Shown: piece by piece, positions 7,222 through 59,498 of the stretch
Layout: the number at the start of each line of letters is the position of its first letter
Numbering within the stretch: the stretch's first letter is position 1
DNA from: a virus
Lineage: Duplodnaviria > Caudoviricetes
Virus record (IMG/VR): IMGVR_UViG_3300044635_001707
Location: 924 to 64,923 of that record
Strand: one strand, 5' to 3'
Length of the DNA: 64,000 nt
Notes under the pieces: model-generated
What the model was told of the DNA's origin: nothing
What the model saw: the letters and a program-made list of their open reading frames with translations, nothing else
Database searches by the model: none
Translations under genes and position numbers: made by a program

Positions 7222-7252
7222 ATCTTTTTTTAAAAATCCAGGACAAGACATC

Positions 7253-20232: not shown

Positions 20233-23200
20233 CTATCTACCGTAGGGATTACCGCGATTAATCGAGCCACCAACTCGCATTTCCCGACGGATGCCATCAG
20301 ATACCATTGCCTGTACAGCCTGGGATAATCTGCGAGTATCAACCTCTGAATCACTGCCTACCGCCACACTTACAGGTACATTAATAGTCGTTGTGTTCCC
20401 CATTCTAGAAGCAATAGTGCCGTTGCCACCAGTACCAACAACGCCACCGTTAGCAAATCCGGCAACGCCACCTTGCAACTTGTTCCAAATAGCAGTTTCT
20501 TTGTGATTCAACACACGCTCACCCTCAGATGCAATAATGACGTGAGGTACTCGTCCGGTGAGCGATCGCTCTTTATTCAACGCTCCCACTATACCGCCGT
20601 TGGCAAAAGTTGGCAATTCTCCCACCATGCCACCAGCGAAAGCCATATTAAAAGAAGTATTGGGAAGCACGTCACCAACGAAAGAGCCGCCCGAAGCCAA
20701 CCCCGCTCCCTTGCCACCAAACAGTCCTGCGACCCATCCAAACAAAGAGTCAGTCATTCGCTTAGATGCGATATCAGCCAAAGAATCAATGAGGTTTTTA
20801 GTGATGGAATTAAATAGATCGGTTAAAGATTCACCAAAGCTTTTCGTGCTTAACAAGAACTCTTTAAATCCATTCCTGAAGCCACTCGTGGTATTCTTGA
20901 TGACAGAAGCTAACTCAGAAAATTGCAATTTAATTGCATCTAGTTTGTACTCATTTGTTAACCGCAGATTTTCACGCAATTCATTAATCTGTTCATTGGT
21001 TAATCTATTTGCCTCAGTCGCCAACTTGTTCTTCTCAATAAAATCTTCTAGTTGAATACTAGCCTTATCAAATTCCATTCCTTGGCTGCTGATAGCAGAT
21101 TGCTTATCTAATTTTTCAGCACTGAAATCTAGTCCATAGCTTTTCAGCAGAGAACTTCTGGAGTCAGAAACACCTTTGATTGAATCTTGTAAATACTGCG
21201 CTCTTTCTAAGAGTTTATTTTGGAAACTAGTATTTTCATTTATTTTATCAAGGGATGTTTTGAGCTTTATAGTTTTTTCCGTTAGAAGATATTCTTGTTC
21301 TGCTATCTCTAAACGTTTCTGCATCCTTAATTCGTCTATTTGTTTGGTTCTAAGTAAATCGGCGATAGCAGTTTGTTTTTCCTTGTATTGAATTTCGTTA
21401 TTCTTTAAAGCAATAGCATTTTCATTGTCAGCAATCTTGTTAAACTCAGGATTGAGAGGATCTAATGTTTGCAAAACCTTCAGTTGCTCTATCTTTTTTT
21501 GCTCAATATCAAGAGATGACCTAGCATCTTGTACGTCCAATCCAAACACCCTAATAACTTCGTCTCCCTCGCGTTTATCTTTAAATGCGGCAATCATGGC
21601 TGGGATATTTGCATTTAACCGTATTAAGGCTTTTGTATTAGCAATAAATTGCAGTGCATTAACTTGCGCTGTCTTACTCATCAGTTTACTTACGTCATTC
21701 CTAATTTTAGCATCATCGGGGAACTTCTTAACCAATTCAACATCAATCAAACGTTTAATGACAGGGTTTTGATTTTTAAGAGCATCCCCAGCATCACGAA
21801 TGCTCTTTTCATAGCCTTCCCTTTTTTTCTGAAGGGATCTTTCATAGTCAGCAGCCTCTAGCTCCATTCTTTTCATCGGTGACATATATGGAGACAGCCC
21901 CTCCTCGATGGTCTTTGTGCTATCTAGCTCCAAGTCTGCGATACCACTAAGAGCTTGATATATATTTTCAGTAGTTTGTTGTATTAGACGATAAAGGTCT
22001 AATTGTTGTTGCAGTTTTTCTGTGTTTGCTTGCGCTAAGTAATTAAGATCATTAGCCACATTTTTAACATTTTCTGTTTGTCCATAAAGTTCGGCAGCAT
22101 TGCTTATGATTTCTTGAAGTTTGTCGGGTTCTAAAGCCTTACGATTTATGACAGCATTGTCAAGTTTTTTCGATTCTAATTTGGCATTAGGATTAACAAA
22201 TTCTACTACAACAGGTTTTACTACAACAGGTTTTTTATTTTCATTTCGGTAAATTGGTGATCCATCTGGCGGAGCAGTATTAAACAATGCTTTTTCTTTC
22301 AATCTTCGTGCAGTCAAAGCATCAGCTACATTTTTGCTTACCCGGTCTGCTTTATTTAATTTTGCAAACTCATTAGCTGCCGCAACGTAGTCGCCAGTAT
22401 TCAGTTTAGCTAACAAAGCACTTCTTTTTAAAGCACCTTGTCCAACATTAAAGGTTAAAGAAGTTAAAGCGTCTAATTGATTTACGTTAAGCGGAACTTT
22501 AACTAACCGCTTAACTTGATTTTGTGCATCTAGTAATTCCTGATTCAACCGCTTAGTAGCTTCAGTTCGAGATATTCGTTCACTCTTAGATTTTGCTACA
22601 GTTCCGTAACCAATCGAGTACTGATTGTAGTCAGAATACGCCTTGGAGCTAAAGTTTTCAAACTTCTTCACCATCTCCATTAGTCGAGAAGATAACGCTG
22701 GTGATTTAGTTTTAACTAATGGTTTAGGTTTAGGTTTAACTAATGGTTTAGGTTTAGGTTTACTAGTGGGATTAGGTTTAGGTTTACTAGTGGGATTAGG
22801 TTTAGGTTTACTAGTGGGATTGGGTTTAGGTTTACTAGTGGGATTGGGTGTCACCATTGGTGTAGCAAAAGGTGTTTTACCGGATGGTGACGTAAAAGAT
22901 CCAGTGCCTTTAAAATTACGTTTTGGATCTGTAGATAACTTTTGGAATTGCGCTATTTGAATAGGGAATCCTGGTAAACTTGCAACCTCAACCGAGTTTA
23001 TACGAGATGGTAATTTTATAGATGACTGAGTTGTAGGAGGTGTAGAAGGTGTAGGAGAAAAAGGCACAGGAGGCAAGGTAGGCACTACAAGACGTGGTCG
23101 TGACTGAGGTGAACCCAAAGCAGGTTCAAACCAATCGAGAGAACCTACAGACGAATTTCCTGTAAATAGCCTTGGCGTGGATTGTAATTTAATAGATAAA

Positions 23201-26200
23201 GAGTCAATTTTTTCCCCTATATTGTCTATTGTTTTACCTACAGATACAAAAGAATTATTAAGTGAATTAGTGGCATTAACAGCATCAGTACCTATATTTT
23301 TAGCTACTTTTTGTGTTTGGGAATTGGTGCTGTTAACACGAATATTAACAATTTCTAATTGATTATTAAATCTTTTGACTTTCTCGTCATCAAATGGAAT
23401 TATCTTACCTGGAAGACTTTGCTGTAATTCAGCAGCACGTAATTTAATAGCATCAAGGTTGTTTCTATAATCAATCTGTTGTTTTCTAAAGTCTAGTTCT
23501 CTTTTCTCAATCTCTGTGCTTTTGGAAATTATATTAATAATTCCTTCAACAAACTGAGTATAGATATTATTCCCTGCGCCTATCAATGCCTGTCTTAACC
23601 TATTTTGTATTTTTGATCCTTCAAGAGTAATCCGAGCTTTCTCAAACTCAATACTAGCTGATTGCGCTTCCCTGACCGAGGTTCTGTAATATTCAGCAAC
23701 TTGCTTAGTCTGGTCAATCAAAGCTTGCTTCATATCACGTCGGGCTTTGGCAGTCTCTAGGGCATTTTGAGTTAATGATTCACGGTCTTTCATTATGTCT
23801 TCAGTCAACTTATCGTATTCTGATTGCGCTTCGGCCAAGTTAGTGCCGCCCACCGCAATTACCTGGGCTATCTTATCAAGAGCAATCTGATTAGTTTTAA
23901 GTTTTTCTTCTAATAAAGTTCGGGAATCATTTAATCCTGCAAGTTGAATGTTTGCTAATTCAGGTGCTATTTGTTGTGATGTTCCTGCACTTGAATAGAC
24001 TTTAGATTGACTTAAATTAGACTTGGATCTATTGGCGGAAGAGGCTCTTTCAAACTTAATGTTTGCATCTTTAACAGCGTTTGTCGCTTGAGTGTAGAGC
24101 ATTTCTTCTACTGGTTTTACGTCAAATGGCTTAACTCCTGCTATTTGTTTTTTAAGTTCCTCAATTTGTCTCTGAGTCTCTTGAACAGCAGGAGTAATTA
24201 ATGCCCCTTGAATACCTTCAACTTCTCCTAAAGTTAATTGTTCTTTATATTTTTCTAGCTTTTTAAGTTGATTTTCAAGTATAGGCAATGGTGAGCCAAA
24301 ACTATCAACTAATTCTTGCCGTCTTTTGTAGAGTTGTTGAATTAATTGCTTAACTTCGCCCTGTTCTTTGCGAACTTTATCGCTAGGTAATGCCTTGCTT
24401 AATTCCACTCCTTTTTTAGTGGCATTAATTAGCTGCTTGTCAACGTCTTTTATCTCTTGAAAATTGAATGCCCGTTGCACAGAAGCTTTGATTAGTTTTT
24501 GCTGATTCTTTTTCTGAGCCTCTAAAACTTTTAGCTCATCTTCAAGTTTAATTGTACCTGCGTCAGAACCGTCACCCATGCTTAACGCAAAAGCATCAGT
24601 GGAAGATGCAGCCATGAGATTTCTAGATGCAGAAACAGCCGCCCTTCTCTCATCAATCTCTGCTTGTTTCTTCTTGATTTTCCCATCAAGTTCTTTATCT
24701 ATTCGCTGATTTTCTGGAGTATTCTCTATTTGGAAACTAGCAGCAGCTAGAGCTACAACATTCCTCATCTGTTTAGATTTGTTTTCTAGCTCTTTAAACC
24801 CAGGTGAGTTTTGTAAATCTTTAATTTCTTGGGGACTAGCACCACTGTTTTTCTTGTCTGCTATGGCCGCTAGTCTTCTTTTGTTATTGTCTTTAATTTC
24901 CTGATTAAGCTTAGATATCGCTGGGGTATTATTAAACGTATTTTGCTGTTCCGATGTTAACGGTTTTATATCAGCCATAAAGTCGCCAGGCTTACCTGTA
25001 AAGCCTTGACTAGCACCAAATTCTTTTAAGTTCTGAATATTCTTCTTCTGGTCTTCAAAATATTTTAGGATTTGTTGCTGGGCATTGGTTAAACGCGCGT
25101 TTTCCCCAAGGTCAAAATAACCTTCTAATTTATTATCTGCGATTAGTTGCTTTTGCTTCCCTGTCAGTTTAGGAGCAAACAAATCAAGAGCTTTTGTAGC
25201 GAGAACTATGGCAGCAATAAAACCACCTATTGAAACGACAATAAGACCAAGCGGACTCATTATAGCGGTAATCAATGGAGTTACCGCCATAGCAAGTCTA
25301 CCAAAAATAGAAACGGGGGCAACCGGACCCGCTATAAGAGCCTTGTTTGCGGCTATGGTTGCAGCCGTGGATACAGCAGAATTTAGAATTGAACTTAGAA
25401 CTGATATCCCAGAAGCAAAAGCCGCACCCGCACCAGCAGCACCCAAAGCACCAACTCCCACCGCATCCATGAGAGAGCCGCTCGCAGAATCGCGTTTATT
25501 CCTCTCTTTAATTGCATCATCCCACTTAAAGTCGCCACCGCCCCAAAAGCTTCTGATATCCAGTTGTATGCCTTTAGAGGGTAATGTATCCGCTAACGTA
25601 CCACCTAGCTTAGTGACACTATTCGTAGCTTTATCAAAGGAATCGGCAGTTTTTTGAACATTAGCCCGTATTTCAGTTAGTCCATTGTTTAATTCCTTGG
25701 TAGTTTTTGACAACGAATCACCCATGGGATTACTGAAGTCACCTTTAGAGAACATCAAAATACCAAAAGCTACAGCCACATGAGTTAATGCTGTTCGCAA
25801 AAATCCCATGGTTGCAGAAAATATTTTTATTCTCGCTTCACTAGCAGCCATAGCAGAACTCATGGAGGTCATCATTAGTTCAGTAGCGATTTTCATTGAA
25901 GTCATGACGCCCACAAAAGCTTTAGCTGCGCCGCCAAACATTCCTGTAACTGCACCTATGAACCCTTTAAATGCAGGAGCTAAGGCCATGACCATTAGCC
26001 CTGTACCCTGCTCAAACATGAAGACCATCGCCAGTAATTCTACAAAACCGGGAGGAATAATCTTAAAGAATCCAGAAAATACACCTTTAAGCCAATCAAT
26101 AATATTACCAGCCTGTTCTGCACCTTGAACCAAACCACCAAACATTGATGAGAAACTAAAGTTACCACCACTCATTGAGCGCATCACTGAGTCAACCGTA

Positions 26201-29200
26201 CTAAATGTGGCTACAACTGCATTCGTGACACCATCCATCATGTTTGTGATTAGGTCTTTTTCTGCACCCAGCCAATTATCGGCCACGTCCGCAGTTACAC
26301 CGATAATCATCGGCATCATGTTGGTGGCAACGGCTGTAAAGGTTGCCATTAGAAGGTTCTGCAACGAACCAAACAACACAACCAAGGGTTTTACCTTAGT
26401 CATAATCGTAGTTAGTCCAATGGCTATGGTTGCCGCAAAACCAATGGCAAATGCTTGTCCTAAAGGTATCAACGCGCCAAGTGTATTACTGAACAACGCC
26501 AAACCGTCCGCAAACGTGCCAACAAACCAGCCTAAAGTGCTACCAAGTTTGTCAGTAAATATAGTTGTAATTTCAAAACCAACATTACCCAATTTATTTA
26601 AAGCTACAACCAAGCCTCCAGCTTGATTAGCAGCAGATGCACCATAATCTTGATTCAGGACTTTAGCTACATTAGGCAAGATATCTTGAGATAAAATGCT
26701 ACCAGATGCTACTAATGCATTCATTTCAGGAACAGACACGCCCATAGACTTAGCAAATACACCCATGGCAGGCGGGAATTTCTCACCTAATTGCTGTCTT
26801 AGTTCTTCCATTGACAGCTTACCTTTTGCCAAGATTTGTGTATACGCCATGAACACCAAACTAGCATCTTGTCCACTAATGCCTAATGCACTTAAAGATG
26901 CCGTAATACCCTCAAACAAATCCTTGACACCCTGTCCTTCCATCTTGCTACCTCTAGCCGCAATAGCTAATTGAGAGTAGGAGTTGGCAGCAACTTCAGA
27001 AGGGACATTCATTTTGGCGGCTACGTCTTTAGCATACTTAAATTCCGCTTCACCACCAGCCTTTGAACCACCCAAGAAAGTAAAGCGTCGCTGTAAAACT
27101 TCTACTCGCTGGATACCATCTAGCATCTTGGATATGTGAGGCATCACCATACTCACAGCCGCACCTATACCACCAATAATCGGAGCTAAGGGTAAGAATA
27201 GGGGCGATAGAGAAGCGAATAAACTTGTCACGGGGGCTAAAGTTGTGGCAAGAGACCCCATGAATTGCAGCATATTGGGGAACATTGCATCAGCTTCTTT
27301 TGAACTGCTAAACAGAGCTTTTTTTACTCCTGTTCCCATCTGGTTGTACATTTCCTTAAACTGGTCTTGGGTAGCAATTGTACCGCGAGTCATTCTTCTG
27401 AAAATCAAGCCGACAGCATCGCCAAAGTTAGCTTGTCCTATTGCTTTCTTAGCGTTGTATTCTAAATCATCCTTGGCATTAGCAAGATTACGCACTGAAT
27501 CTTTAAATCCTTGAGTCAGTGCCTTACCCATATCAAAGCCCTTTTCCTTAAACTTAGCTTGTAATCCGGTCAGGGTAGCCATTAGTCCTGCTGTGGCTGT
27601 GTTTAAAAGTTTAGGGTCTATGTTCTGGAGTTGCTCCGACGACATCCCAGCTTTTTTCAAGCCTTGCATCAATAAACCTTTCAGTGCTTCTTGGTCATTG
27701 GTTGCATAAGCTTGTGTGAGTCTACCAACAACTCCGGTAGTATTAGGATTAGCAGCTAAATCACGGCGTGTTTCCTCTAGTTTTCCCGACTGCTTCATAG
27801 AGGTGTAATCTGAGAAAGTTACACCGCGCTCTTTTAATACCTTGGCTGTCAGGTAGTCTAGTCGCCTTTGCGCTCTGGGAACACCAAGCTTAAACCTGGA
27901 GCGTTCAATATCACCCATTGCAAACATGAGGTTTCGTTCATTTTCAGAGATTGCAAGGGGTTTACCGATAATATCTTGCCGTGCCTTCTCCAGTTCCTCC
28001 CTTGACATGGCTTCACGAGTAGTAGTATCAACGCCACGTCTTCTTAATGCGGCTTTAGTTAATGCATCTAATCTTTCTGGTGATATTGTTCCAGACTTCA
28101 TAGCACGCTCTAAGGCTTTTTCTGTCTTACTTCTTTGTACACCAATGGAACTAATAACATCTGCTATTTTCCCTGATTGCTTGTTGATACTACGTCCTGT
28201 CATTCCTTGAATTACAGAAGTAGGAATCATGGGAATATTGAGATTTTCTAAAACACTATCTACCGCAGTGTTACCTAAATTTTCAATCAATTCTCTACTA
28301 GCTTGACCGCCTTTTGCATTGGACAATCCCGCTTTTTTCCTATTAGCTAAAGTCTGTTCTTGCAGGACTCTTTCAACAGTAGGTGCTTGATTCTTGGGGT
28401 TAGATCGTGTAGATGGGTCTAGTCCCAAGATTCCACTAAAGGTATTCATCAATGGACCGAATAACCCCATAGCAAGAGAAAGTGGACCACCAATACCCGC
28501 AGTACCTACAAGATTAGGTACAGGATTCATTATTTTAGAAATTGCGCCCAATATTCCGTGAGCTTTCCCACCAGATAAAGAAGTTAAGTTAATCCTGGTA
28601 ACAGAACTTAATAGCTTTGTTAAAAACCCACCTGGTTTTAAAACATCATTATTGAGTAGATTCTTAACAATAGAATTACCCAGTCCTAACGTTAATCCCC
28701 CAATTATGGGCATCAATGGCTTCAGCATGGGGATTAGCTGCATTGTTTTAGGAATAAACTTCATAAACCAAGGCAATGCAGACTGAGCTTGAGACAGCAA
28801 TCCTTTGTAAAGCGGTTGTTTTAAGGTATCAGCGAGGGAAAATAGAGCGGCGTTTACAGCATTACGCATTACCTGCCCTAATGAAGCATAGCCGGATAAT
28901 GTACTTTGCCGAATACTATCACCAACTGCGGTAAATAAATTGGTGACTAAGTCCTTACCTAGTTGTAAGTATTGATTCGTTGCGTTTTGTGGCGTACGAA
29001 CTCTTATTGGTAAAAATCCGTCTGCGGGTGGTGGTGGTGGCGACGATAGGGATGGTGGTGCTGGTGGTATTGGTGGTGGTGGTGGTGATGTTGGGGCAAA
29101 GGGAGAAGGAGTGACAGCGGGAGGTTTGGCTGGTGATGCAAGTATTGGGAAAAACCCAAGCCCAGTAGGTAAACTAGGTTTGATTGTGGTAGATTTAAAT

Positions 29201-32200
29201 GGTTCAGGAACAAGAGAGGTAGAGACCGTTGGTGGCAAAACAACGGGAAGTCTCGCCCCTACTTGTCGAGTGAGCGATCGCACTACAGAAGAGCGCGGCG
29301 CGTTCATAAGGTCATCCAAAACAGTTGCAAACCCGGTCAAACTCGCAGTCATGCTCCTATTGAGCAGAGCATTTAGATTAACCAGTAAGTCTTTGTTTTT
29401 ATTAATCAACGCTTGTGTGTTGACTTCTTGTTGTGTAATAGTTGCCCTTGCCGCAGTGCTAGGTCTGGACGGCAATATCAGTCGCGCGTCTGGATTTGCG
29501 GTAGTGCTGTTTGGCAATATTAACCGTGCATTTGGATTTACGGTAGTGCTGTTTGGTAATACTAATCGTGCATTTGGGTTGGGCGCGAAACTGCGGGGCG
29601 TAATTATTGTGCTAACAGGCTGTGGTACAACATTTTCCGTAACAGGTGAAGATTTTACATCCCTTCTTGCTTGCTGTAAAATTCCTGGTATTTCTGCCAT
29701 AGAAGCTCCAGTAATTCTAGCCATAACTTTACTAACTGTCGTGCTACTTGCTAGAATTTCCATTGCCTTAGAGGCGTTTAAGTCATTATATTTACCTTCT
29801 CTAAACCCTTTGGCAATCCTTTGATTTTGAGATTCTACTGTATTGGCGAAATGTTCAACTCTAGCTTTTTCTGATTCCGTCGCTGTAGCACTTTCATTGA
29901 CAGTTTTAAGCATTAATTCAGCAATTCTTTTATTGGCCAAAACCAAAGCTGCAACCGCACCATTTTCAAAGCCTTCGCCAAAATTCAATCCGATAGACTC
30001 CATTACCTTTGATGGTGATGCAATGCCAAATACTTTTTTGACTGCGCCTAAAACACCCTTAGCAAAACCAATTACTATCCCCAATACACCGCCGTTAGCG
30101 GATAAAAAGCCTTGCCCAAAAGAAGAGATTAGATTAATACCTACCTCTTTAAGCCCACCACCCTTACTAAATGCAGACTTAGCATTGTTGAATAAATTCC
30201 CTAAGAGGTTATTATTTCCCGTTGGCTGCTGGGATTCTTGCCCGTTGCCTAAAACGTATTCTTGGATTTTGGGATGATTTAAGAATTGCCCAAAATTACC
30301 TTTAGATGCAATATAAGGATTTGCTGCCAAATCTGTTAAATCGTCCAAACCCTTTCTGTCTAAGCGGTGTGTCTGAATATATGGATTGCCACCGATTAAT
30401 TCAGAATGAACTGAATGCCCTAATTGAAAATCATTGCCAGACTGTGTATTAAGAAAAGAAAAAAGCTCACGCCCTGTTTTTTTGTTGTATTTAGTAAATG
30501 CCTTGGTGTTACCAAATAAATTCTCTTCAATGCCTAATAAGCCTCGTAGCCATTTCTTTGACTCCAAAAATTTATATATCTTACTGCCTAAATTTTTAGG
30601 TAACTTAAACGGTGTATTTTTATCCGTATCGGTGTCTTGATGCCAGTCGTAGACATCGTTAATTTGCAAACCTCCGTCTTTGGTTTGTGTGTAATTGAAT
30701 CCCCCTAGTGTATGAGCCAGCGTGGGCAATGTCTTGTGTTTAACCATGCCCACCACGCCACCGTCAGGAAAATAACCATCACCTTTTTCGGCTGATTGCA
30801 TCATATTGAAAATAGTTGCAATTTCAGCCTCTCTAGCCAATTGTGGATTCAGCTTATGAACCTGGGTTGTACCTTGATAAAATGCCCCTAAATGCCTCAA
30901 GGGTGTTCGGATTGATTTTGGAACTAAATTAGTGTCTGCAACACCCATCATCGCAGTCCCTAGAATCATTCCTGGGATTGTCGCTTTACTTGCTTTCTTA
31001 GCATTATCAAAAACTTTTTTTGTAGTTTCTGAATTACTAGATACGGCATTTTTAATTGCCTGATCGTAAGATTCTATTCCTTCTGATGGTATTGATTTGA
31101 TATTTTTTAAACCATTGCCAACAACATCAGTTAGTAAATCACTAGCACCGGAAACATCAATTACACCTTTTTTGATTCCAATAGCCAATCCCGATGCAAT
31201 CATCAACCCCAATGCAATCATCACTTTAGATGGTGATTGAATTTCCATCTTGGCTTTAACAGCCTTAATCAAGTCGTCCAACATGGCGCGGGCAGCATCG
31301 GATACACCACCAGCAGCGTGTTGAATACCTTTCTTTAGTCCTGCATCTACTTCTATACCCAGACTTTCCGCTTGGGCGACATAGCCTTTTAATTGCTGGT
31401 CAAACAGTTTTTTGTCTGCAAGGTTTAGCTTGCCCAGACTCTTTTCTGCGGTGCTTGTATTTCTGGAAATACTAGACTTACCACTGCTATGAATCCTAGA
31501 TAATTCACTGTTAATATCTTTACTGAAACCCGCGTCTTGTCCAGTTTTTACATATCTATCAATAGTAGAAATTGCTTCTTTTGACCTGGATACAAAATTA
31601 GAAACCTCAGACCTTGCGGCACTGATATCTTCTTTTGTACCAGCATCACTGATGGCATATTTAACCTTTGCCTGAATCCTCTTGTACTCATCGCTGAAAT
31701 ATTTGTTTATTGCTATCAGCGACTGTTCAATACTATCCAAAGAAACCTGAGTATATTTCTTGGTATTTTTAGACGATGGAATAGAAGGTAATGGTGTTAA
31801 ATTATTTTCTGATTTTGTGGCGTTTTTATAGCCTTCAGATATATCAATATTTTTATGTATTTCAGATTGAATTGTTTTAAATAATGGCTTAATTTGCTCA
31901 GGAATATTTACAGGAATAGGCTCTAATTCCCGTTTTTGTTGAGGTGGTGGTAATGGAGATTTGTTTGCTTTAGGTGGCAGTTGCTTAGGTAGGGGTGCCG
32001 CATCTTGCCAAGGGTCTGAGATTGTTTTAGCAACAAAAGGTTTACTGGTTTTTGCCGTAGGCTCTGTTGACTTAACACTAACAGCAGCATCGCTCAACGC
32101 TTTAGCCGCATTTTTTAAATCTGATGCGGCTTCCTTGAGAATATCTGAAGAAGATTTAGCGATTGGTTCTACTGGTTTTGCCGACACTCCAGTCTTTAGA

Positions 32201-33579
32201 AAATCTTTAATAACTGGAGAAGCATTAGGCAATAATCTATTAAAAATAGACTCTACTGCTTTTTTTGATTGTGAAGCTATCCCTTCTCCAATATATTTAT
32301 TAACTGCACCTTTATCGCTACTTTCAGCAGCATCGAAGAATCCACTAATAGCATTTTGAACCCCAGGTGCAGAATTTTGAGTGACCGCTTTAGCGGATTG
32401 TCTAGCTTGTCTAATGGTTGCTAATTTAGCATTTTGAGCAACGCTTTCAATAGTGACATTAATGCTGTCAGAGAACGCCTTGTTTATCTCCGAAAATGTA
32501 CTAGAAATAACTCCGGAATTACTTTGTTTTATTGAACTGCCAGAATACTCCTTAATAGCATCCTCAATGATTGCCTTAACCCTAGCCTGCTCATTTTTGG
32601 GGTCTGATTGTGCTTTTTTGCCAACTCCAAAATATCTTAACGCACTGCTACTAGCTATCCTACTAGCACTTTCAAAGTCTACACCTATATCATCATTAGC
32701 GGCACTCCTGGTGGCTCTTCTACCCCTAGTGCCTTTTTCTACCCTACTATCATGAGTTCTAATGAACGCATCCATTCCATCTTTGAAAATAGCCTCAATG
32801 CGCTTCTGTTCATTCTTAGGGTCTGATTGTGCTTTTTTGCCAACTCCAAAATACCGTAAAAGCATATTTCCAGACATTCTAGTCATGTCATCCATGCTTA
32901 CACCAATAGTATCCTCAATGCTGCTATTGATACCTTTAGTCAGTCTTTTCCCCACATTCTCGAAAGCACCATCAATAATGGAACGCATGGGACTAGCAAC
33001 CACATCTACCCGTTGAGCTTTACTAGAAGATGCGCTGTCTTTTTGTGCTTGCTGTTGAGATGATGCAACGGAAGACTCACTTACAGCATCTCTAACAGCA
33101 CTTTGAACAGCATCGGTTAAGCTCTTTTCTAACTGTTTGCTTAACTCAGATTCAACGGTAATAGTAATAGTTTTATTTGATAATTTCCCTAATCTTTCTT
33201 CTAGTTCATCTAGTTTAGTAACATCAGTATTAACAACAATAGGATTATTATTAAAATATTTGTTAACCTCTTTAAGGTGTTGTACTTTAAGATTTAAATG
33301 TTTGTTTAAATCTGTTAAACTATCGTCGTCAACGTTAACAACAATAGGATTATTATTAAAATATTTGTTAACCTCTTTAAGGTGTTGTACTTTAAGGTTT
33401 AAATGTTTGTTTAAATCTGTTAAACTGTCATCGTCTACATTAATTTCTAAATTAATCTTCTCAAAAGTTTTTTCAATAGAACTTGCAGCCTCATAGGCTT
33501 TCTTCTTAGCTTGTTCCAAGGATTTTTCTAGCTGTGCAGTATCAGCACACAACTCAACAATTAATTCACCTAAATTCAT
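20233..33579 (-). CDS. Giant tail tape measure protein with GH24 lysozyme domain
   Basis: Tape-measure motif QILAKGKLSMEELRQQLGE, IASPSKVM motifs, lysozyme FENF..AY.D..SIGYG..NQLDALTSLTFNVG..LTARR..EKALF, C-terminal FANGG; follows tail chaperone. Confidence 0.9.
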   Translation of the reverse strand: MNLGELIVELCADTAQLEKSLEQAKKKAYEAASSIEKTFEKINLEINVDDDSLTDLNKHLNLKVQHLKEVNKYFNNNPIVVNVDDDSLTDLNKHLNLKVQHLKEVNKYFNNNPIVVNTDVTKLDELEERLGKLSNKTITITVESELSKQLEKSLTDAVQSAVRDAVSESSVASSQQQAQKDSASSSKAQRVDVVASPMRSIIDGAFENVGKRLTKGINSSIEDTIGVSMDDMTRMSGNMLLRYFGVGKKAQSDPKNEQKRIEAIFKDGMDAFIRTHDSRVEKGTRGRRATRSAANDDIGVDFESASRIASSSALRYFGVGKKAQSDPKNEQARVKAIIEDAIKEYSGSSIKQSNSGVISSTFSEINKAFSDSINVTIESVAQNAKLATIRQARQSAKAVTQNSAPGVQNAISGFFDAAESSDKGAVNKYIGEGIASQSKKAVESIFNRLLPNASPVIKDFLKTGVSAKPVEPIAKSSSDILKEAASDLKNAAKALSDAAVSVKSTEPTAKTSKPFVAKTISDPWQDAAPLPKQLPPKANKSPLPPPQQKRELEPIPVNIPEQIKPLFKTIQSEIHKNIDISEGYKNATKSENNLTPLPSIPSSKNTKKYTQVSLDSIEQSLIAINKYFSDEYKRIQAKVKYAISDAGTKEDISAARSEVSNFVSRSKEAISTIDRYVKTGQDAGFSKDINSELSRIHSSGKSSISRNTSTAEKSLGKLNLADKKLFDQQLKGYVAQAESLGIEVDAGLKKGIQHAAGGVSDAARAMLDDLIKAVKAKMEIQSPSKVMIALGLMIASGLAIGIKKGVIDVSGASDLLTDVVGNGLKNIKSIPSEGIESYDQAIKNAVSSNSETTKKVFDNAKKASKATIPGMILGTAMMGVADTNLVPKSIRTPLRHLGAFYQGTTQVHKLNPQLAREAEIATIFNMMQSAEKGDGYFPDGGVVGMVKHKTLPTLAHTLGGFNYTQTKDGGLQINDVYDWHQDTDTDKNTPFKLPKNLGSKIYKFLESKKWLRGLLGIEENLFGNTKAFTKYNKKTGRELFSFLNTQSGNDFQLGHSVHSELIGGNPYIQTHRLDRKGLDDLTDLAANPYIASKGNFGQFLNHPKIQEYVLGNGQESQQPTGNNNLLGNLFNNAKSAFSKGGGLKEVGINLISSFGQGFLSANGGVLGIVIGFAKGVLGAVKKVFGIASPSKVMESIGLNFGEGFENGAVAALVLANKRIAELMLKTVNESATATESEKARVEHFANTVESQNQRIAKGFREGKYNDLNASKAMEILASSTTVSKVMARITGASMAEIPGILQQARRDVKSSPVTENVVPQPVSTIITPRSFAPNPNARLVLPNSTTVNPNARLILPNSTTANPDARLILPSRPSTAARATITQQEVNTQALINKNKDLLVNLNALLNRSMTASLTGFATVLDDLMNAPRSSVVRSLTRQVGARLPVVLPPTVSTSLVPEPFKSTTIKPSLPTGLGFFPILASPAKPPAVTPSPFAPTSPPPPPIPPAPPSLSSPPPPPADGFLPIRVRTPQNATNQYLQLGKDLVTNLFTAVGDSIRQSTLSGYASLGQVMRNAVNAALFSLADTLKQPLYKGLLSQAQSALPWFMKFIPKTMQLIPMLKPLMPIIGGLTLGLGNSIVKNLLNNDVLKPGGFLTKLLSSVTRINLTSLSGGKAHGILGAISKIMNPVPNLVGTAGIGGPLSLAMGLFGPLMNTFSGILGLDPSTRSNPKNQAPTVERVLQEQTLANRKKAGLSNAKGGQASRELIENLGNTAVDSVLENLNIPMIPTSVIQGMTGRSINKQSGKIADVISSIGVQRSKTEKALERAMKSGTISPERLDALTKAALRRRGVDTTTREAMSREELEKARQDIIGKPLAISENERNLMFAMGDIERSRFKLGVPRAQRRLDYLTAKVLKERGVTFSDYTSMKQSGKLEETRRDLAANPNTTGVVGRLTQAYATNDQEALKGLLMQGLKKAGMSSEQLQNIDPKLLNTATAGLMATLTGLQAKFKEKGFDMGKALTQGFKDSVRNLANAKDDLEYNAKKAIGQANFGDAVGLIFRRMTRGTIATQDQFKEMYNQMGTGVKKALFSSSKEADAMFPNMLQFMGSLATTLAPVTSLFASLSPLFLPLAPIIGGIGAAVSMVMPHISKMLDGIQRVEVLQRRFTFLGGSKAGGEAEFKYAKDVAAKMNVPSEVAANSYSQLAIAARGSKMEGQGVKDLFEGITASLSALGISGQDASLVFMAYTQILAKGKLSMEELRQQLGEKFPPAMGVFAKSMGVSVPEMNALVASGSILSQDILPNVAKVLNQDYGASAANQAGGLVVALNKLGNVGFEITTIFTDKLGSTLGWFVGTFADGLALFSNTLGALIPLGQAFAIGFAATIAIGLTTIMTKVKPLVVLFGSLQNLLMATFTAVATNMMPMIIGVTADVADNWLGAEKDLITNMMDGVTNAVVATFSTVDSVMRSMSGGNFSFSSMFGGLVQGAEQAGNIIDWLKGVFSGFFKIIPPGFVELLAMVFMFEQGTGLMVMALAPAFKGFIGAVTGMFGGAAKAFVGVMTSMKIATELMMTSMSSAMAASEARIKIFSATMGFLRTALTHVAVAFGILMFSKGDFSNPMGDSLSKTTKELNNGLTEIRANVQKTADSFDKATNSVTKLGGTLADTLPSKGIQLDIRSFWGGGDFKWDDAIKERNKRDSASGSLMDAVGVGALGAAGAGAAFASGISVLSSILNSAVSTAATIAANKALIAGPVAPVSIFGRLAMAVTPLITAIMSPLGLIVVSIGGFIAAIVLATKALDLFAPKLTGKQKQLIADNKLEGYFDLGENARLTNAQQQILKYFEDQKKNIQNLKEFGASQGFTGKPGDFMADIKPLTSEQQNTFNNTPAISKLNQEIKDNNKRRLAAIADKKNSGASPQEIKDLQNSPGFKELENKSKQMRNVVALAAASFQIENTPENQRIDKELDGKIKKKQAEIDERRAAVSASRNLMAASSTDAFALSMGDGSDAGTIKLEDELKVLEAQKKNQQKLIKASVQRAFNFQEIKDVDKQLINATKKGVELSKALPSDKVRKEQGEVKQLIQQLYKRRQELVDSFGSPLPILENQLKKLEKYKEQLTLGEVEGIQGALITPAVQETQRQIEELKKQIAGVKPFDVKPVEEMLYTQATNAVKDANIKFERASSANRSKSNLSQSKVYSSAGTSQQIAPELANIQLAGLNDSRTLLEEKLKTNQIALDKIAQVIAVGGTNLAEAQSEYDKLTEDIMKDRESLTQNALETAKARRDMKQALIDQTKQVAEYYRTSVREAQSASIEFEKARITLEGSKIQNRLRQALIGAGNNIYTQFVEGIINIISKSTEIEKRELDFRKQQIDYRNNLDAIKLRAAELQQSLPGKIIPFDDEKVKRFNNQLEIVNIRVNSTNSQTQKVAKNIGTDAVNATNSLNNSFVSVGKTIDNIGEKIDSLSIKLQSTPRLFTGNSSVGSLDWFEPALGSPQSRPRLVVPTLPPVPFSPTPSTPPTTQSSIKLPSRINSVEVASLPGFPIQIAQFQKLSTDPKRNFKGTGSFTSPSGKTPFATPMVTPNPTSKPKPNPTSKPKPNPTSKPKPNPTSKPKPKPLVKPKPKPLVKTKSPALSSRLMEMVKKFENFSSKAYSDYNQYSIGYGTVAKSKSERISRTEATKRLNQELLDAQNQVKRLVKVPLNVNQLDALTSLTFNVGQGALKRSALLAKLNTGDYVAAANEFAKLNKADRVSKNVADALTARRLKEKALFNTAPPDGSPIYRNENKKPVVVKPVVVEFVNPNAKLESKKLDNAVINRKALEPDKLQEIISNAAELYGQTENVKNVANDLNYLAQANTEKLQQQLDLYRLIQQTTENIYQALSGIADLELDSTKTIEEGLSPYMSPMKRMELEAADYERSLQKKREGYEKSIRDAGDALKNQNPVIKRLIDVELVKKFPDDAKIRNDVSKLMSKTAQVNALQFIANTKALIRLNANIPAMIAAFKDKREGDEVIRVFGLDVQDARSSLDIEQKKIEQLKVLQTLDPLNPEFNKIADNENAIALKNNEIQYKEKQTAIADLLRTKQIDELRMQKRLEIAEQEYLLTEKTIKLKTSLDKINENTSFQNKLLERAQYLQDSIKGVSDSRSSLLKSYGLDFSAEKLDKQSAISSQGMEFDKASIQLEDFIEKNKLATEANRLTNEQINELRENLRLTNEYKLDAIKLQFSELASVIKNTTSGFRNGFKEFLLSTKSFGESLTDLFNSITKNLIDSLADIASKRMTDSLFGWVAGLFGGKGAGLASGGSFVGDVLPNTSFNMAFAGGMVGELPTFANGGIVGALNKERSLTGRVPHVIIASEGERVLNHKETAIWNKLQGGVAGFANGGVVGTGGNGTIASRMGNTTTINVPVSVAVGSDSEVDTRRLSQAVQAMVSDGIRREMRVGGSINRGNPYGR
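22715..22850 (-). repeat. Tandem 24/21-bp repeats encoding PNPTSKPK / PKPLVK linker
   Basis: Directly visible repeats N-terminal to the lysozyme domain. Confidence 0.9.
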
Positions 33580-54096: not shown

Positions 54097-55665
54097 ATGA
54101 CACAATTAGAGCTAATCAAGAAAGAAATTCAACAACCCAAACTCAGAGATTATCAGATTGACTTTATCAGAGATATTTACAATGAAATTCGTAAAGGTGA
54201 GAAGCGAATTTTAGGAGTATCCGGCACCGGATCAGGTAAAACAGTTATTGCATCCAGGATGGTAGCTGATGCTGTTAGTCGTGGGCGCAAAGTATTGTTT
54301 ATTGTCCATTTAGATGTATTAGTGGGACAAACTTATGAGAAATTTTCCGCATTTGGGCTAGAATGTGGATTCATTAAATCAGGATGGAGTGAAAATCAAA
54401 ACGCTTTAGTACAAATTGCATCGGCTCAAACATTGCACCGCCGGAATTGGTGGCGAGATGGATTTGTACCAGATATAATTATCTGCGATGAAGCACACGA
54501 GACCGCATGGATATCCGTAGTATCCGAGTTGCTTGAAGAGAACGAAAACGCCATAAAAATCGGGCTGACCGCTACACCTTACCGATTATCAAAGAAGCAG
54601 GGCATGGCTGACAAGTTTGATGTGCTAGTAGCTGCACCCACGCCAGGAGAACTAATGAACAAAGGTTTTCTTGTTCCTGCCACTTACTACGGCATCAAGC
54701 AGCCTGATTTATCCAAAGTCAAAACCATAGCTGGAGACTATTCCGAAAGCGGACTAAGCGAAGTTATGAACGATAGCGACGTTCTAGACTCAATGCTACG
54801 CAACTGGCAACGACTAGCTAGTAACAGAAAGACCATCGCTTTTGCGGTTGATGTCAAGCATTCAAAAGCGATCGCACAAAAATTCAATGACAACGGAATA
54901 GTCGCAGAACACCTGGACGGAGACACCCCAGGGCATATCAGAAAACAAATGTTTGAGCGGTTAGCAATAGGTAAGACTCAGGTATTGTCATCCTGCAAAG
55001 CACTCCAGATAGGGTTTGACTGCCCACCCGCCGACTGCGTGCTGATGTGTCGTCCTACTAAGTCCAAGTCAATTTACTTTCAACAATTGGGGCGTGGCTT
55101 GCGTCCATCTCCAGGTAAAAAAGATTGCATGGTGCTAGACCAGGCTGGCAATGTCGCCAGATTTGGTTTTGTGGAAGATATCAAGAAATTTAGTCTAACC
55201 AAGGGCAAAGAATCACAAGGTGAAGCACCAGTTAAATGTTGTCCCGATTGCCAAAAAATTCTCTATTGCTTTGTGATGAAATGCCCACAATGCAGCCATG
55301 TTTTCCCCAGGCAGGATGTAGAAAAACCAACTGGCGAGATGTTTGCATTAAAGTCAAAAGCCAAAAAATCAAAAGCTAAATCAAGCGATGACTCGCTACT
55401 TGAAGAGAAGATTAACTTTGTAAAAGAATCGCTTCAAAAAGTCTGGAAATACAAAATAAAACCAGGCTGGGTGTATTTCCAATTTAAAGAAAAGTTTGGA
55501 ACAACGCCCCATAGACAAATGTTCTTGCATGGAATTTTTGGGGAAAATCCAACAGAAGAAGACAAGCAAAATTACTGGACTTTTCTGATGGCTAAATCTG
55601 AAAACGACATCACTTATTCCCAAAGGTATTACTCATGGGAATTCGGGGAAAATAGAACAGCATGA
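54097..55665 (+). CDS. SF2 DEAD/DEAH-box helicase with Zn ribbon
   Basis: LRDYQ, GTGSGKT, DEAH, GLTATP, QQLGRGLR, CPDC..CPQC. Confidence 0.92.
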   Translation: MTQLELIKKEIQQPKLRDYQIDFIRDIYNEIRKGEKRILGVSGTGSGKTVIASRMVADAVSRGRKVLFIVHLDVLVGQTYEKFSAFGLECGFIKSGWSENQNALVQIASAQTLHRRNWWRDGFVPDIIICDEAHETAWISVVSELLEENENAIKIGLTATPYRLSKKQGMADKFDVLVAAPTPGELMNKGFLVPATYYGIKQPDLSKVKTIAGDYSESGLSEVMNDSDVLDSMLRNWQRLASNRKTIAFAVDVKHSKAIAQKFNDNGIVAEHLDGDTPGHIRKQMFERLAIGKTQVLSSCKALQIGFDCPPADCVLMCRPTKSKSIYFQQLGRGLRPSPGKKDCMVLDQAGNVARFGFVEDIKKFSLTKGKESQGEAPVKCCPDCQKILYCFVMKCPQCSHVFPRQDVEKPTGEMFALKSKAKKSKAKSSDDSLLEEKINFVKESLQKVWKYKIKPGWVYFQFKEKFGTTPHRQMFLHGIFGENPTEEDKQNYWTFLMAKSENDITYSQRYYSWEFGENRTA

Positions 55666-57372: not shown

Positions 57373-57495
57373 TTTTGATGCAAAAATTTAATATCGCCTA
57401 AGTATGCCGAATGCCGAAAGGTAGGCTTGCATCTCAGGTTCGATGCCTGAGACGATCATTCCCCGAAACCGTTATTCAATAGGGGAGTCAATAAA

Positions 57496-57804
57496 ATGCA
57501 GATAAAGATAACCGAAAAAAACAGCTTCGCGCTGATAGAAATTCTTGCAGAAAATGGCAACCCTGCCAGCCCCCAAAATCCACTCGATGAGCAATCAGAA
57601 TTGGGGAAAGTCAATTTCCCCGAAGCCAACGGACAGTTGGCTGTCATTAGCGGGATGCCAGTCAGTGCGGTCGCACTAGTGGCACTGCACTACAAAAATC
57701 TCTTTGGCGCGACTGCTATCGCCAATCCCCGTCTTGGGGTGGCACTGGTGGTTCACTCCACCAACCCAGCCTACCCACTGGGTGCGTCAATCCCTTTGGC
57801 GTAA
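57496..57804 (+). CDS. Csx3/Crn3-like protein
   Basis: AVISG.P......HY......ANPRLG..LVVHS resembles Csx3 VISGRGP..H..YDPRLG.VVV.SH; similar length. Confidence 0.7.
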   Translation: MQIKITEKNSFALIEILAENGNPASPQNPLDEQSELGKVNFPEANGQLAVISGMPVSAVALVALHYKNLFGATAIANPRLGVALVVHSTNPAYPLGASIPLA

Positions 57805-58059
57805 TTGACCTGTGGCAGAACCGCACCGTTAAAAAGCGCGGTAGACCTGCCACAGGCCAGGGTGAATCAAGGTATATTCCTCTTGAGCTATTGCCTGCCG
57901 TGGACAAGCTTCTAGAGGAATACAGAAAGTAATAAAAATCCCTAGTCAATGGCTGGGGATTTTTATTTTGAAAATATTTTATTTTAGTATTGACATTATA
58001 GAGAAATTATTCTATAGTGTAAGAAGTTCAGGGAAACAAAAAATAAAGGAGTCAGGGAA

Positions 58060-58398
58060 ATGACAAATATTACAGCAATTAAAGTGGACGATTTTGATTC
58101 AACTAGCCTATCCTCCTCTATTAGGAGAGTAGGCGCAGAAAATTTTTCTGAAAATTTTCAAGAAGGCGATTGTTGGGTTGCGTGTCCCCAACAACTGTTG
58201 GCGAAAGACATCAAAAAAATAACAGTCATTTCGAGAAAGTTAGAGGATATAGTTTTGATAGAGTTTGGAAATAAGGACAAAATCAGAATAAAAAAATTTG
58301 AGGGAGGGAATCCGAGGGAGTGTATCGAGGAGGCGAATTTAGACTTTGAACACTTCGATTTAGATATATCAAACTTAAACAACTGGCTAATTGATTAA
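58060..58398 (+). CDS. Hypothetical protein
   Basis: After repeated promoter. Confidence 0.7.
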   Translation: MTNITAIKVDDFDSTSLSSSIRRVGAENFSENFQEGDCWVACPQQLLAKDIKKITVISRKLEDIVLIEFGNKDKIRIKKFEGGNPRECIEEANLDFEHFDLDISNLNNWLID

Positions 58399-58490
58399 CT
58401 AGCAACGTTAATCAATTAGCCAAGTTAACGAGTAACTGTAGTTTATTATTGCAGTTACTTTTTCTATCTCTTAACTAAGGAAATGAAACA

Positions 58491-58688
58491 ATGACTACAT
58501 ACCATATTGTATACGCAGAAAGAGAGTTTGCGAGAGAGATGGGCGACCCGATACTATGCATAATAGATGCTTCTTCAGAGCAAGAAGCATTAAAAAATTG
58601 CGCTGTCAGAAGCGGGATTATGGAGGTGAAAGCAATTCTCGCTAAAACGAAAGTTCAAAATACAGACCACCACACGGAAACAGAATAA
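58491..58688 (+). CDS. Small hypothetical protein
   Basis: AAGGA RBS. Confidence 0.55.
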   Translation: MTTYHIVYAEREFAREMGDPILCIIDASSEQEALKNCAVRSGIMEVKAILAKTKVQNTDHHTETE

Positions 58689-58946
58689 TTATCTTAATTA
58701 CCAGGTCTGCTGAACCATATTTTTAAACTGAGTATATTCAGCATCGAACAGGAACTTCACAGTTCCTGTTAGTCCATTTCTGTGTTTAGCAATTATAGTC
58801 TCTGAAACCCGGCTTCTAGAGGAATACAGAAAGTAAAAGAAATCCCTAGTTAATAGCTGGGGATTTTTATTTTAAAAATATTTTATTTTAGTATTGACAT
58901 TATAGAGAAATTATTCTATAGTGTAAGAAATTAAGGAAAAAGAAAG

Positions 58947-59498
58947 ATGCTATTAACAAAAACTGAACTGTATCCGCAATTTGAGCAAATAAAATTCAAG
59001 GTTGAAAGATTTTTCAACCTATTTGCTCAAATCGAAATAGTCAGACGTTCCTCCTGTGATATCGGATCTCTCCCCGAAGATATCGCATTAATCGTTTATG
59101 TCCCATACATAAACGCATGGTATGAGTCTAAACCTGACTCTAGAGGTAAAACCGCTAAATGTAAAAAAGAATTTTTTGATTTATCTTCTACCGAAAGCTT
59201 AGAAGATAAATACCATAAATATTTCAAAACCTCTGAGACTCTAGAGTTCCAAAAGGTCACTTTCTTACGTCCTTATGATTTTGAAAGGAAAAATCATGAA
59301 AAGCTATACGCTTCATCAAGAGATGCAAAAAAAACGAATAAAGAAGGTTATTACTTTGAATTTGAGCTTGCTGAATTAGATTCAGTAATTCAAATTCCTG
59401 AAAAATTATTGTATCCCAATAATTTAAAAAAGAAATTGTTTTCTTTTGCCACAGACAGCTTTGAAAACTGTCTGCTGTCAAAAACGATTCGATTTTAA
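58947..59498 (+). CDS. Hypothetical protein
   Basis: After repeated promoter. Confidence 0.7.
   Translation: MLLTKTELYPQFEQIKFKVERFFNLFAQIEIVRRSSCDIGSLPEDIALIVYVPYINAWYESKPDSRGKTAKCKKEFFDLSSTESLEDKYHKYFKTSETLEFQKVTFLRPYDFERKNHEKLYASSRDAKKTNKEGYYFEFELAELDSVIQIPEKLLYPNNLKKKLFSFATDSFENCLLSKTIRF

Follow-up and report, generated by a model that had tools for sequence, protein, structure and literature searches.

What does a tailed phage do with a Csx3-like protein that lacks the residues known to drive cleavage in this family? The question is raised by a 102-amino-acid (aa) open reading frame (ORF) at positions 57496 to 57804 (+ strand) of a 64,000-nucleotide stretch of viral DNA, hereafter the window, which comprises bases 924 to 64923 of the 64,923-bp IMG/VR record IMGVR_UViG_3300044635_001707 (linear; CheckV completeness, 67%). 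Cellular Crn3 (Csx3) removes cyclic tetra-adenylate (cA4) and so switches off type III CRISPR effectors. We found that the phage ORF is a genuine conserved gene under strong purifying selection and that its product, by sequence profile and by predicted structure, is a homologue with the Csx3/Crn3 fold. The reading we favor is that this small protein, as a homodimer, would intercept the cA4 alarm of a host type III CRISPR system, chiefly by holding the messenger rather than by destroying it.

The ORF opens with ATG and runs through its stop codon within the interval above, and a search across 5.8 billion proteins returned 27 homologues of its product at 53 to 90% identity. Homologue lengths ranged from 100 to 121 aa (100 to 103 aa in 26 of the 27), and the alignment of the window protein with its homologues (28 sequences) contained 19 invariant columns. 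For 13 copies of the gene from fetched loci, we computed Nei-Gojobori ratios of nonsynonymous to synonymous substitution (dN/dS) against the window gene; these were 0.09 to 0.18 in the seven pairs with unsaturated synonymous sites, the sites being saturated in the remaining six. That the product lacks catalytic residues would also suit an ORF that arose by chance or a host csx3 that was captured and is now decaying into a pseudogene. However, the low dN/dS, the steady length, the persistence of the invariant columns at identities down to 53%, the conservation of the very residues that replaced the catalytic set, and the confident AlphaFold2 model (predicted local distance difference test [pLDDT], 94.9) all speak against such a reading, and we consider it extremely improbable. 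A preliminary description of this DNA had pointed to a 102-aa ORF with three motifs, and direct reading of the translation finds all three in it: V50-I51-S52-G53-M54-P55, N77-P78-R79-L80-G81, and V85-V86-H87-S88.

The same description had called the product Csx3/Crn3-like; sequence profile, profile-profile comparison, and predicted fold now agree on that identity. The Pfam family Cas_csx3 (PF09620) was the sole Pfam match to the window protein at an E value of ≤10 (E, 8.9e-4), with a score of 19.5 bits that falls just under the curated cutoff of 21; the alignment joins residues 33 to 99 of the protein to positions 10 to 77 of the 78-position model. Across the family, Cas_csx3 matched 27 of the 28 members at an E value of ≤0.1 (best, 1e-6), and PF09620 was present in the precomputed annotation of 3 of the 27 homologues. 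Four independent Csx3 models of PADLOC matched the window protein (E, 1.5e-4 to 2.1e-3). Comparison of the clade with seven canonical Csx3 sequences by hhalign gave a probability of 95.8% (E, 7.2e-9; 103 columns). When the clade profile was searched against 1.84 billion representatives, 33 proteins were found at an E value of ≤0.001, and these grade into canonical Csx3 (P0058) and into Csx3-AAA fusions of 436 to 467 aa. The only NCBIfam match, a weak one to SCO3933 (E, 0.048; 13.8 bits against a cutoff of 80), was set aside as chance.

The link to the characterized Archaeoglobus fulgidus protein, AfCsx3 (AF_1864; PDB 6YUD, 3WZG, and 6VJG; PF09620), was reached only by way of the fold and by way of the canonical intermediate P0058, which matches the A. 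fulgidus Csx3 chains at an E value of 1e-12. When the PDB was searched directly by sequence, neither the single protein nor the profile of 28 sequences found anything at an E value of ≤10, and the clade is thus highly divergent. In a Foldseek search of the PDB with the predicted model, the best 11 among the matches listed were all AfCsx3 (E, 2e-5 to 1.7e-4; template modeling [TM] score, 0.68 to 0.78; 25 to 27% identity). The next matches listed were chains of Cat1 (E, 3.5e-3; query TM score, 0.53 to 0.58), and weak matches to STAS domains also appeared (E, >1). The viral structures of BFVD held no match at an E value of ≤0.001. As a lead only, the nearest clusters in the ESM Atlas were Csx3, with scores of 0.83 to 0.86 that lie under the 0.9 level, and in one of them, which bears the automatic name "Csx3 family protein," the phylum that occurs most often is Uroviricota.

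The protein is also predicted to form a homodimer, the basic unit of Csx3. The interface score (ipSAE) was 0.86 in three runs against 0.00 for the best control, with a contact agreement of at least 97% and a partner pLDDT of at least 93. Of 30 proteins solved as pairs of one chain, 20 attained this mark, compared with 1 of 23 solved as single chains; the pass may be owed to likeness with the already solved AfCsx3 dimer. In stand-alone architecture and in its size of about 100 aa, the window protein likewise resembles AfCsx3.

Given this common fold, how much of the AfCsx3 machinery remains? According to the excerpted text of PMC7371418, H57, H60, and H80 of AfCsx3 are absolutely conserved and form a manganese (Mn)-related "H60 face"; H60A and D69A mutants are inactive, and R71A and H80A mutants are strongly reduced in activity. 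It is chiefly the "D69 face" that is described there as holding cA4, through I22, S44, G45, R46, I49, and R71, with the H60 face of another dimer completing the sandwich around the ligand. We mapped these residues onto the window protein via P0058, a MAFFT alignment, and hhalign, and counted states over the 28 clade sequences.

The cA4-binding loop S44-G45-R46-G47-P48 has its counterpart in S52-G53-M54-P55 (codons 57649 to 57660, + strand), which is invariant in 28/28 sequences; S52, G53, and P55 align with S44, G45, and P48, respectively. The loop is shorter by one residue, so that R46 is without a counterpart, and V56 is aligned with I49. AfCsx3 D69-P70-R71 corresponds to N77-P78-R79 (57724 to 57732, +). 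At the position of D69, Asn was found in 26 of the 28 sequences, with one Val, one Thr, and no Asp, and at the position of R71, Arg was found in 26 and Lys in 2. In place of the Mn site H57-x-x-H60 stands H65-Y66-K67-N68 (57688 to 57699, +). Here H60 is replaced by N68 (Asn in 25/28, Gly in 3/28), H57 falls on L64 or on H65, position 65 being variable, and Y66 and K67 are newly invariant (28/28). Finally, H87-S88-T89 (57754 to 57762, +) aligns with Q78-S79-H80: His occupies position 87 in 25 of the 28 sequences (Gly or Thr in the other 3), Ser occupies position 88 in all of them, and no sequence has His at position 89. By comparison, H57, H60, and H80 were invariant in all seven canonical Csx3 sequences.

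The preliminary description had noted the change from Asp to Asn, which these counts bear out. It had also seen the His as apparently one residue away from its canonical position, and this needs correction: H87 aligns with Q78, two positions upstream of the H80 column, and the raw Arg-to-His spacing differs by one only because AfCsx3 has a loop that is shorter by a residue. Larger changes go beyond what had been described: the H57/H60 pair is lost, R46 is deleted, and Y66-K67 is invariant.

Because every residue shown to drive the Mn-dependent chemistry is replaced or not conserved, canonical Mn-dependent cleavage of cA4 to A2-P by the window protein appears unlikely. Judged from the same alignment, most of the cA4-holding face is retained (S52, G53, P55, and R79). 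Three features that define Crn3 by function are missing, namely the three His residues, the Asp in D-P-R, and, as far as scanned, linkage to CRISPR (see below); the window protein is a member of the Csx3 fold family but not a Crn3 in the enzymatic sense. In AfCsx3 terms, it retains the loop with S-G...P and, on the D69 face, P-R, lacks H57, H60, H80, D69, and R46, and carries instead the invariant Y66-K67 and S88, together with N68 and H87.

We consider it fairly probable that the window protein binds cA4, and we lean, by a small margin over even, toward an anti-CRISPR role against type III systems. The capture of cyclic oligoadenylate (cOA)-handling proteins by phages, taken with the largely preserved cA4 face, makes a cA4 interceptor the most economical reading. 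Interception would proceed mainly by sequestration, with cA4 sandwiched between dimers stacked head to tail, as in Csx3 and in the noncleaving Csx3-type sensor domain of Cat1, and any cleavage would be slow at most. Three observations favor sequestration: the residues of the canonical chemistry have been lost, three of the 28 sequences do without H87, and Cat1 provides a precedent. In the excerpted text of PMC12162218, Cat1 sandwiches cA4 between dimers and forms filaments with undetectable ring nuclease activity, and its sensor domain has been assigned to the Csx3 family (preprint 10.64898/2026.10.26.761840). The Cat1 sensor (PDB 9MUD and 9MUE) was our second-best structural group, and it shares with the window protein the noncleaving cA4 binding proposed here; it differs in being part of a host defense effector with a fused TIR domain, whereas the window protein consists of the domain alone and is encoded by a phage. 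Taken as a whole, we hold sequestration rather than fast catalysis only tentatively, at somewhat less than even confidence.

Several points weigh against this reading. The invariance of Y66, K67, and S88 and the near invariance of H87 and N77 suggest that a functional site has been preserved, and these residues might make up an active site that works without metal. With the R46 side-chain contact to cA4 missing, affinity, or the ligand itself, may differ. Moreover, the type III second messenger has been held to be so abundant that sponging "could be a fruitless approach" (PMC13148439), and the authors of that work argue that viruses use nucleases instead of sponges. The assignment of a host to the window phage, finally, draws on enrichment of the HIP1 motif alone, and the integrase-like gene beside a transfer RNA (tRNA) gene leaves room for a prophage-borne protein that could serve the lysogen instead; both are taken up below.

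The first of these points leads to a different mechanism, in which the protein would still be active as a ring nuclease, with a site that has been rebuilt and is probably independent of metal, and would degrade cA4 catalytically, as AcrIII-1 and AcrIII-2 do. In this mechanism, K67, Y66, S88, and H87, clustered near the dimer two-fold axis on the side next to cA4 in the stacked tetramer, would take the place of the His/Mn site. The conservation of these residues and of N77 (Y66, K67, and S88 in 28/28; H87 in 25/28; N77 in 26/28) is what such a site would show. In the dimer model, the two-fold interface includes residues 64, 65, 67, and 87, and it is there that the excerpts of PMC7371418 put AfCsx3 H57 and H60. 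The metal-independent AcrIII-2 uses a comparable set, R96, K99, H128, and S194 (PMC12751052), and the report that viruses counter type III systems with nucleases in preference to sponges (PMC13148439) points the same way. Against this stands the absence of every residue proven necessary in the only characterized members of the family. H87, in addition, is replaced by Gly or Thr in three sequences, so that a binding or structural role fits it better than an essential catalytic one, and in the dimer model it contacts partner residues 60, 61, 64, and 65, touching the partner helix in a way that suggests a structural role. A Csx3-fold enzyme with a site of this kind was not found in the literature searched. 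We know of none with a rebuilt K/Y/S/H site, and we regard the rebuilt nuclease as unlikely, though worth keeping in view.

At its strongest, sequestration would take the form of a catalytically dead filament, in which dimers polymerize head to tail around cA4 and lock the type III signal away. We rate this specific version as possible but doubtful. If true, it would constitute a new anti-CRISPR family on the Csx3 fold, a sequestration-type inhibitor, in which the face bearing Y66-K67, N68, and H87-S88 evolved for tight capping of cA4 and not for hydrolysis.

The deletion of R46 and the remodeling of the entire H60 face, along with a Pfam score below the gathering threshold, would also suit a Csx3 fold reused for another task: binding of a different nucleotide signal (cA3, cA6, or a product of the CBASS type), binding of RNA, or a role in protein-protein contacts. 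According to the excerpts of PMC12409355, the fold bears a distant likeness to STAS, which goes with our weak STAS matches (E, >1), and Csx15, a related ring nuclease family, reportedly accepts several cyclic nucleotides (10.64898/2026.10.26.761840). However, both characterized Csx3-type domains, AfCsx3 and the Cat1 sensor, bind cA4 in the accounts excerpted from their sources. Further, the cA4-face residues S52, G53, P55, and R79 are invariant or nearly so, and Csx3 was the sole family match both in Pfam (E, <0.01) and in PADLOC. We judge a change of task improbable.

A tree of 61 rows and 103 columns, built with a quick IQ-TREE run, rooted on the canonical sequences, and weakly resolved, gives an order for these changes. 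One branch, with a Shimodaira-Hasegawa-like approximate likelihood ratio (SH-aLRT) support of 96, separates a clade with HxxH, DPR, and SH (7 rows) from a 54-row clade with the signature K-N/H-S. Inside the latter, members that retain Asp (D type, with D-P-K/R) are basal, and members with Asn at the position of residue 77 (N type), to which the window protein belongs, are nested in a 44-row group (SH-aLRT, 89). The label at residue 77 changes 8 times on the tree, compared with 22.7 times when shuffled. Because the D-type members are basal in the K-N/H-S clade, loss of the His set seems to have come before the change from Asp to Asn.

The cellular D-type variants are approximately 45 to 60% identical to the window protein; they share the SGMP loop, with K-N standing where canonical Csx3 has HxxH and H-S where it has S-H, and differ in keeping the Asp of D-P-K/R. 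One of them, P0034, is named "CRISPR-associated protein Csx3" and occurs in a metagenome-assembled genome (MAG) of Desertifilum. Two other D-type members lie on 188-kb viral records, one of which is classed as a provirus. We had considered the Asp-to-Asn change as a mark of phage copies and rejected it, since D-type relatives with the K-N/H-S signature are also found on viral records. Within the wider set, P0051, P0054, and P0056 (436 to 467 aa) carry a tandem pair of Csx3-like domains ahead of an ATPase-like region, and by eye their Csx3 domains are also without the full HxxH/SH set. These three are similar to the Csx3-AAA proteins that PMC6546367 describes from cyanobacteria.

Besides the window, the N-type gene was found at three further loci on viral contigs (92%, 70%, and 54% identity) and at 12 loci on metagenome contigs, most of them short. 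Two pattern scans of 185,579 species genomes found no relative; it is important to note that these scans rest on short conserved peptide patterns, so that absence is unproven. A plasmid collection held no relative of the window protein or of P0034, a cultured-phage collection gave no tblastn match to the window protein, and a scan of viral sequences with a distant N-type subalignment gave no match. As far as seen here, this Csx3-fold family is thus restricted to phage and metagenome contigs. The profile Terminase_6N had no matches in the five related viral records and does not confirm their phage nature; for the loci L004, L014, and L018, this was judged from PHROG matches. At L003, none of the three neighboring proteins scanned had a PHROG match.

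The window itself is clearly phage DNA. It encodes a terminase large subunit (PHROG E, 2.5e-139) that is no more than 45% identical to any terminase of a cultured phage, other structural and morphogenetic proteins (a major head protein and a prohead protease), proteins of replication and partition (a DnaB-like helicase, a DNA helicase, and ParB-like proteins), and proteins of nucleotide metabolism and DNA modification (dCTP deaminase, the thymidylate synthase ThyX, and C5 methyltransferases). Profile searches across the whole 64,923-bp record found no match to RAMPs (PF03787) or to Cas1 (PF01867); among 14 control genomes, the same profiles responded in 5 and 7, respectively. A 16-mer repeat scan found no array with CRISPR-like spacing. 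Of eight window proteins around the ORF scanned with PADLOC, only the ORF product itself matched, and only to Csx3 models, and RAMPs were also missing from all five related viral records. The linkage to type III or type I CRISPR-cas genes that is typical of Csx3 is therefore absent, as far as these scans reach, from the gene's own record, in keeping with the preliminary description, which had placed a phage-borne gene outside any CRISPR locus in a window without cas genes.

The surroundings of the gene differ among loci. In the window and in L002, it lies downstream of a helicase (window helicase, 54097 to 55665); in L004, it is flanked by an endolysin (E, 2.8e-56) and a head morphogenesis gene; and in L014, it is near a DNA polymerase, a clamp loader, and a helicase. 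These three differing neighborhoods mark it as a small mobile accessory cassette of tailed phages. Its placement among "early cassettes," as first described, is plausible: it follows the DNA helicase, and the small ORFs around it are without a family match. Between the Csx3-like gene and a conserved gene of 147/149 aa, the window has three ORFs of 112, 65, and 183 aa (58060 to 59498), where the otherwise near-identical fragment L002 has one different 183-aa ORF (6552 to 7103). Small cassettes have been exchanged at this place, and no family match was obtained for any of them.

Directly upstream of the gene lies a leader hairpin (57458 to 57488, + strand) with a 7-bp stem and a 17-nucleotide loop. 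A Shine-Dalgarno-like GGGGAG in its 3' arm ends 8 nucleotides upstream of the ATG, and the RNA fold of 57385 to 57500 has a minimum free energy of −32.9 kcal/mol (z score, −2.66). The hairpin core is common to 11 of the 15 other aligned loci. Compared with L014, the 30-nucleotide core of the leader has just two substitutions and one indel, while the coding DNA is 63% identical; the core is the better conserved of the two. We infer that the hairpin is regulatory. Upstream of it (within 57373 to 57495), the loci carry one of two alternative structured modules, the first in the window, L005, L007, L008, and L009 and the second in L002, L006, L010, L012, and L014. The leader returned nothing from Rfam at an E value of ≤1, and weak Rfam matches at 57832 to 57985, which have a terminator-like look, were far below gathering scores; no Rfam family reached its gathering score anywhere in the window. 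A promoter scan of the window found 5 sites against 4.8 expected and is uninformative.

As for the host, the octamer GCGATCGC occurs at 17 sites in the window (for instance, at 547, 6992, 54868, and 63795), compared with 0.24 expected from shuffles. We take this palindrome to be HIP1, which is typical of cyanobacteria, and a cyanobacterial host for the window phage is likely. Crn3 and type III systems are both common in cyanobacteria, according to the excerpted text of PMC7371418 and PMC9676260.

At the left end of the window, a tRNA-Val gene with anticodon CAC (72 to 154, − strand) adjoins a gene for a 358-aa protein (474 to 1550, + strand) that is weakly matched to an integrase in PHROG (E, 6.5e-7). 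The pair may be an integration module and a hint of a temperate lifestyle. If so, the Csx3-like protein might be a cOA binder that serves a prophage and its host together, protecting the lysogen by dampening self-targeting or leaky type III signaling or acting as a regulator of cOA signaling; a similar role has been suggested for cellular Csx15 (PMC13148439). The D-type relative in L018, a 188,942-bp record of the provirus class, is of interest in this respect: its gene (8001 to 8306, + strand; D-P-K, V-K-N, and H-S) lies about 600 bp from a BstA-like abortive infection gene (6631 to 7425, − strand; PHROG E, 9.2e-46). It is possible that a candidate counterdefense gene here adjoins a defense gene. 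On the other hand, widespread resident prophages sit poorly with the lack of a relative in the two pattern scans of species genomes, and the contexts in L004 (endolysin and head genes) and L014 (replication genes) are of a lytic type. The mechanism also overlaps with that of an interceptor acting for the phage, and a dampener in the service of the lysogen strikes us as quite improbable.

Elsewhere in the window, a giant ORF of 4,447 aa (20233 to 33579, − strand) takes up about one-fifth of the record. It contains a Pfam tape measure domain, TMP_3 (E, 1.6e-23; residues 2157 to 2331), a phage lysozyme domain (E, 4.6e-29; residues 3637 to 3761), and tandem repeats at 22705 to 22849 and 33229 to 33443. 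As a tape measure of unusual length, it would imply a very long tail.

Phage interception of cA4 would follow a known logic. In AcrIII-1 (DUF1874/Crn2), AcrIII-2 (viral SAVED), Crn4b, and viral Csx16, Csx20, and Csx15 ("AcrIII-3"), as is proposed here for the window protein, a small phage protein from a host cOA-handling family removes cA4. These viral ring nucleases and candidates differ from the window protein in fold, and the characterized ones cleave cA4 with intact active sites. DUF1874 was absent from the Pfam matches of the window protein at an E value of ≤10, and the structural matches are to Csx3; the preliminary description was thus right to set the protein apart from AcrIII-1. In the excerpts of PMC12409355, a survey of 28,114 phage genomes found AcrIII-1 in 36, Csx20 in 4, and Csx16 in 2. 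Crn3 is not named in those excerpts, and the survey removed hits that lacked conserved residues, so that it may have discarded one of the present kind. Our full-text literature searches did not find a report of a viral Csx3/Crn3.

Known viral blockers of type III signaling span few folds (DUF1874, SAVED, Crn4b, and Csx15/16/20-like), and a Csx3-fold phage family would add to the instances in which an off-switch of the host has been taken over by phages. The whole known catalytic set has been lost, yet purifying selection is strong. The family therefore offers a clean test of whether sequestration alone defeats type III signaling, which has been doubted (PMC13148439). If the protein instead cleaves cA4, it would represent a second catalytic solution on the Csx3 scaffold. 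In either case, the presumed ring nuclease activity of the wider K-N/H-S subclade of Csx3, including proteins of cyanobacterial MAGs that are annotated as Csx3, should be treated with caution.

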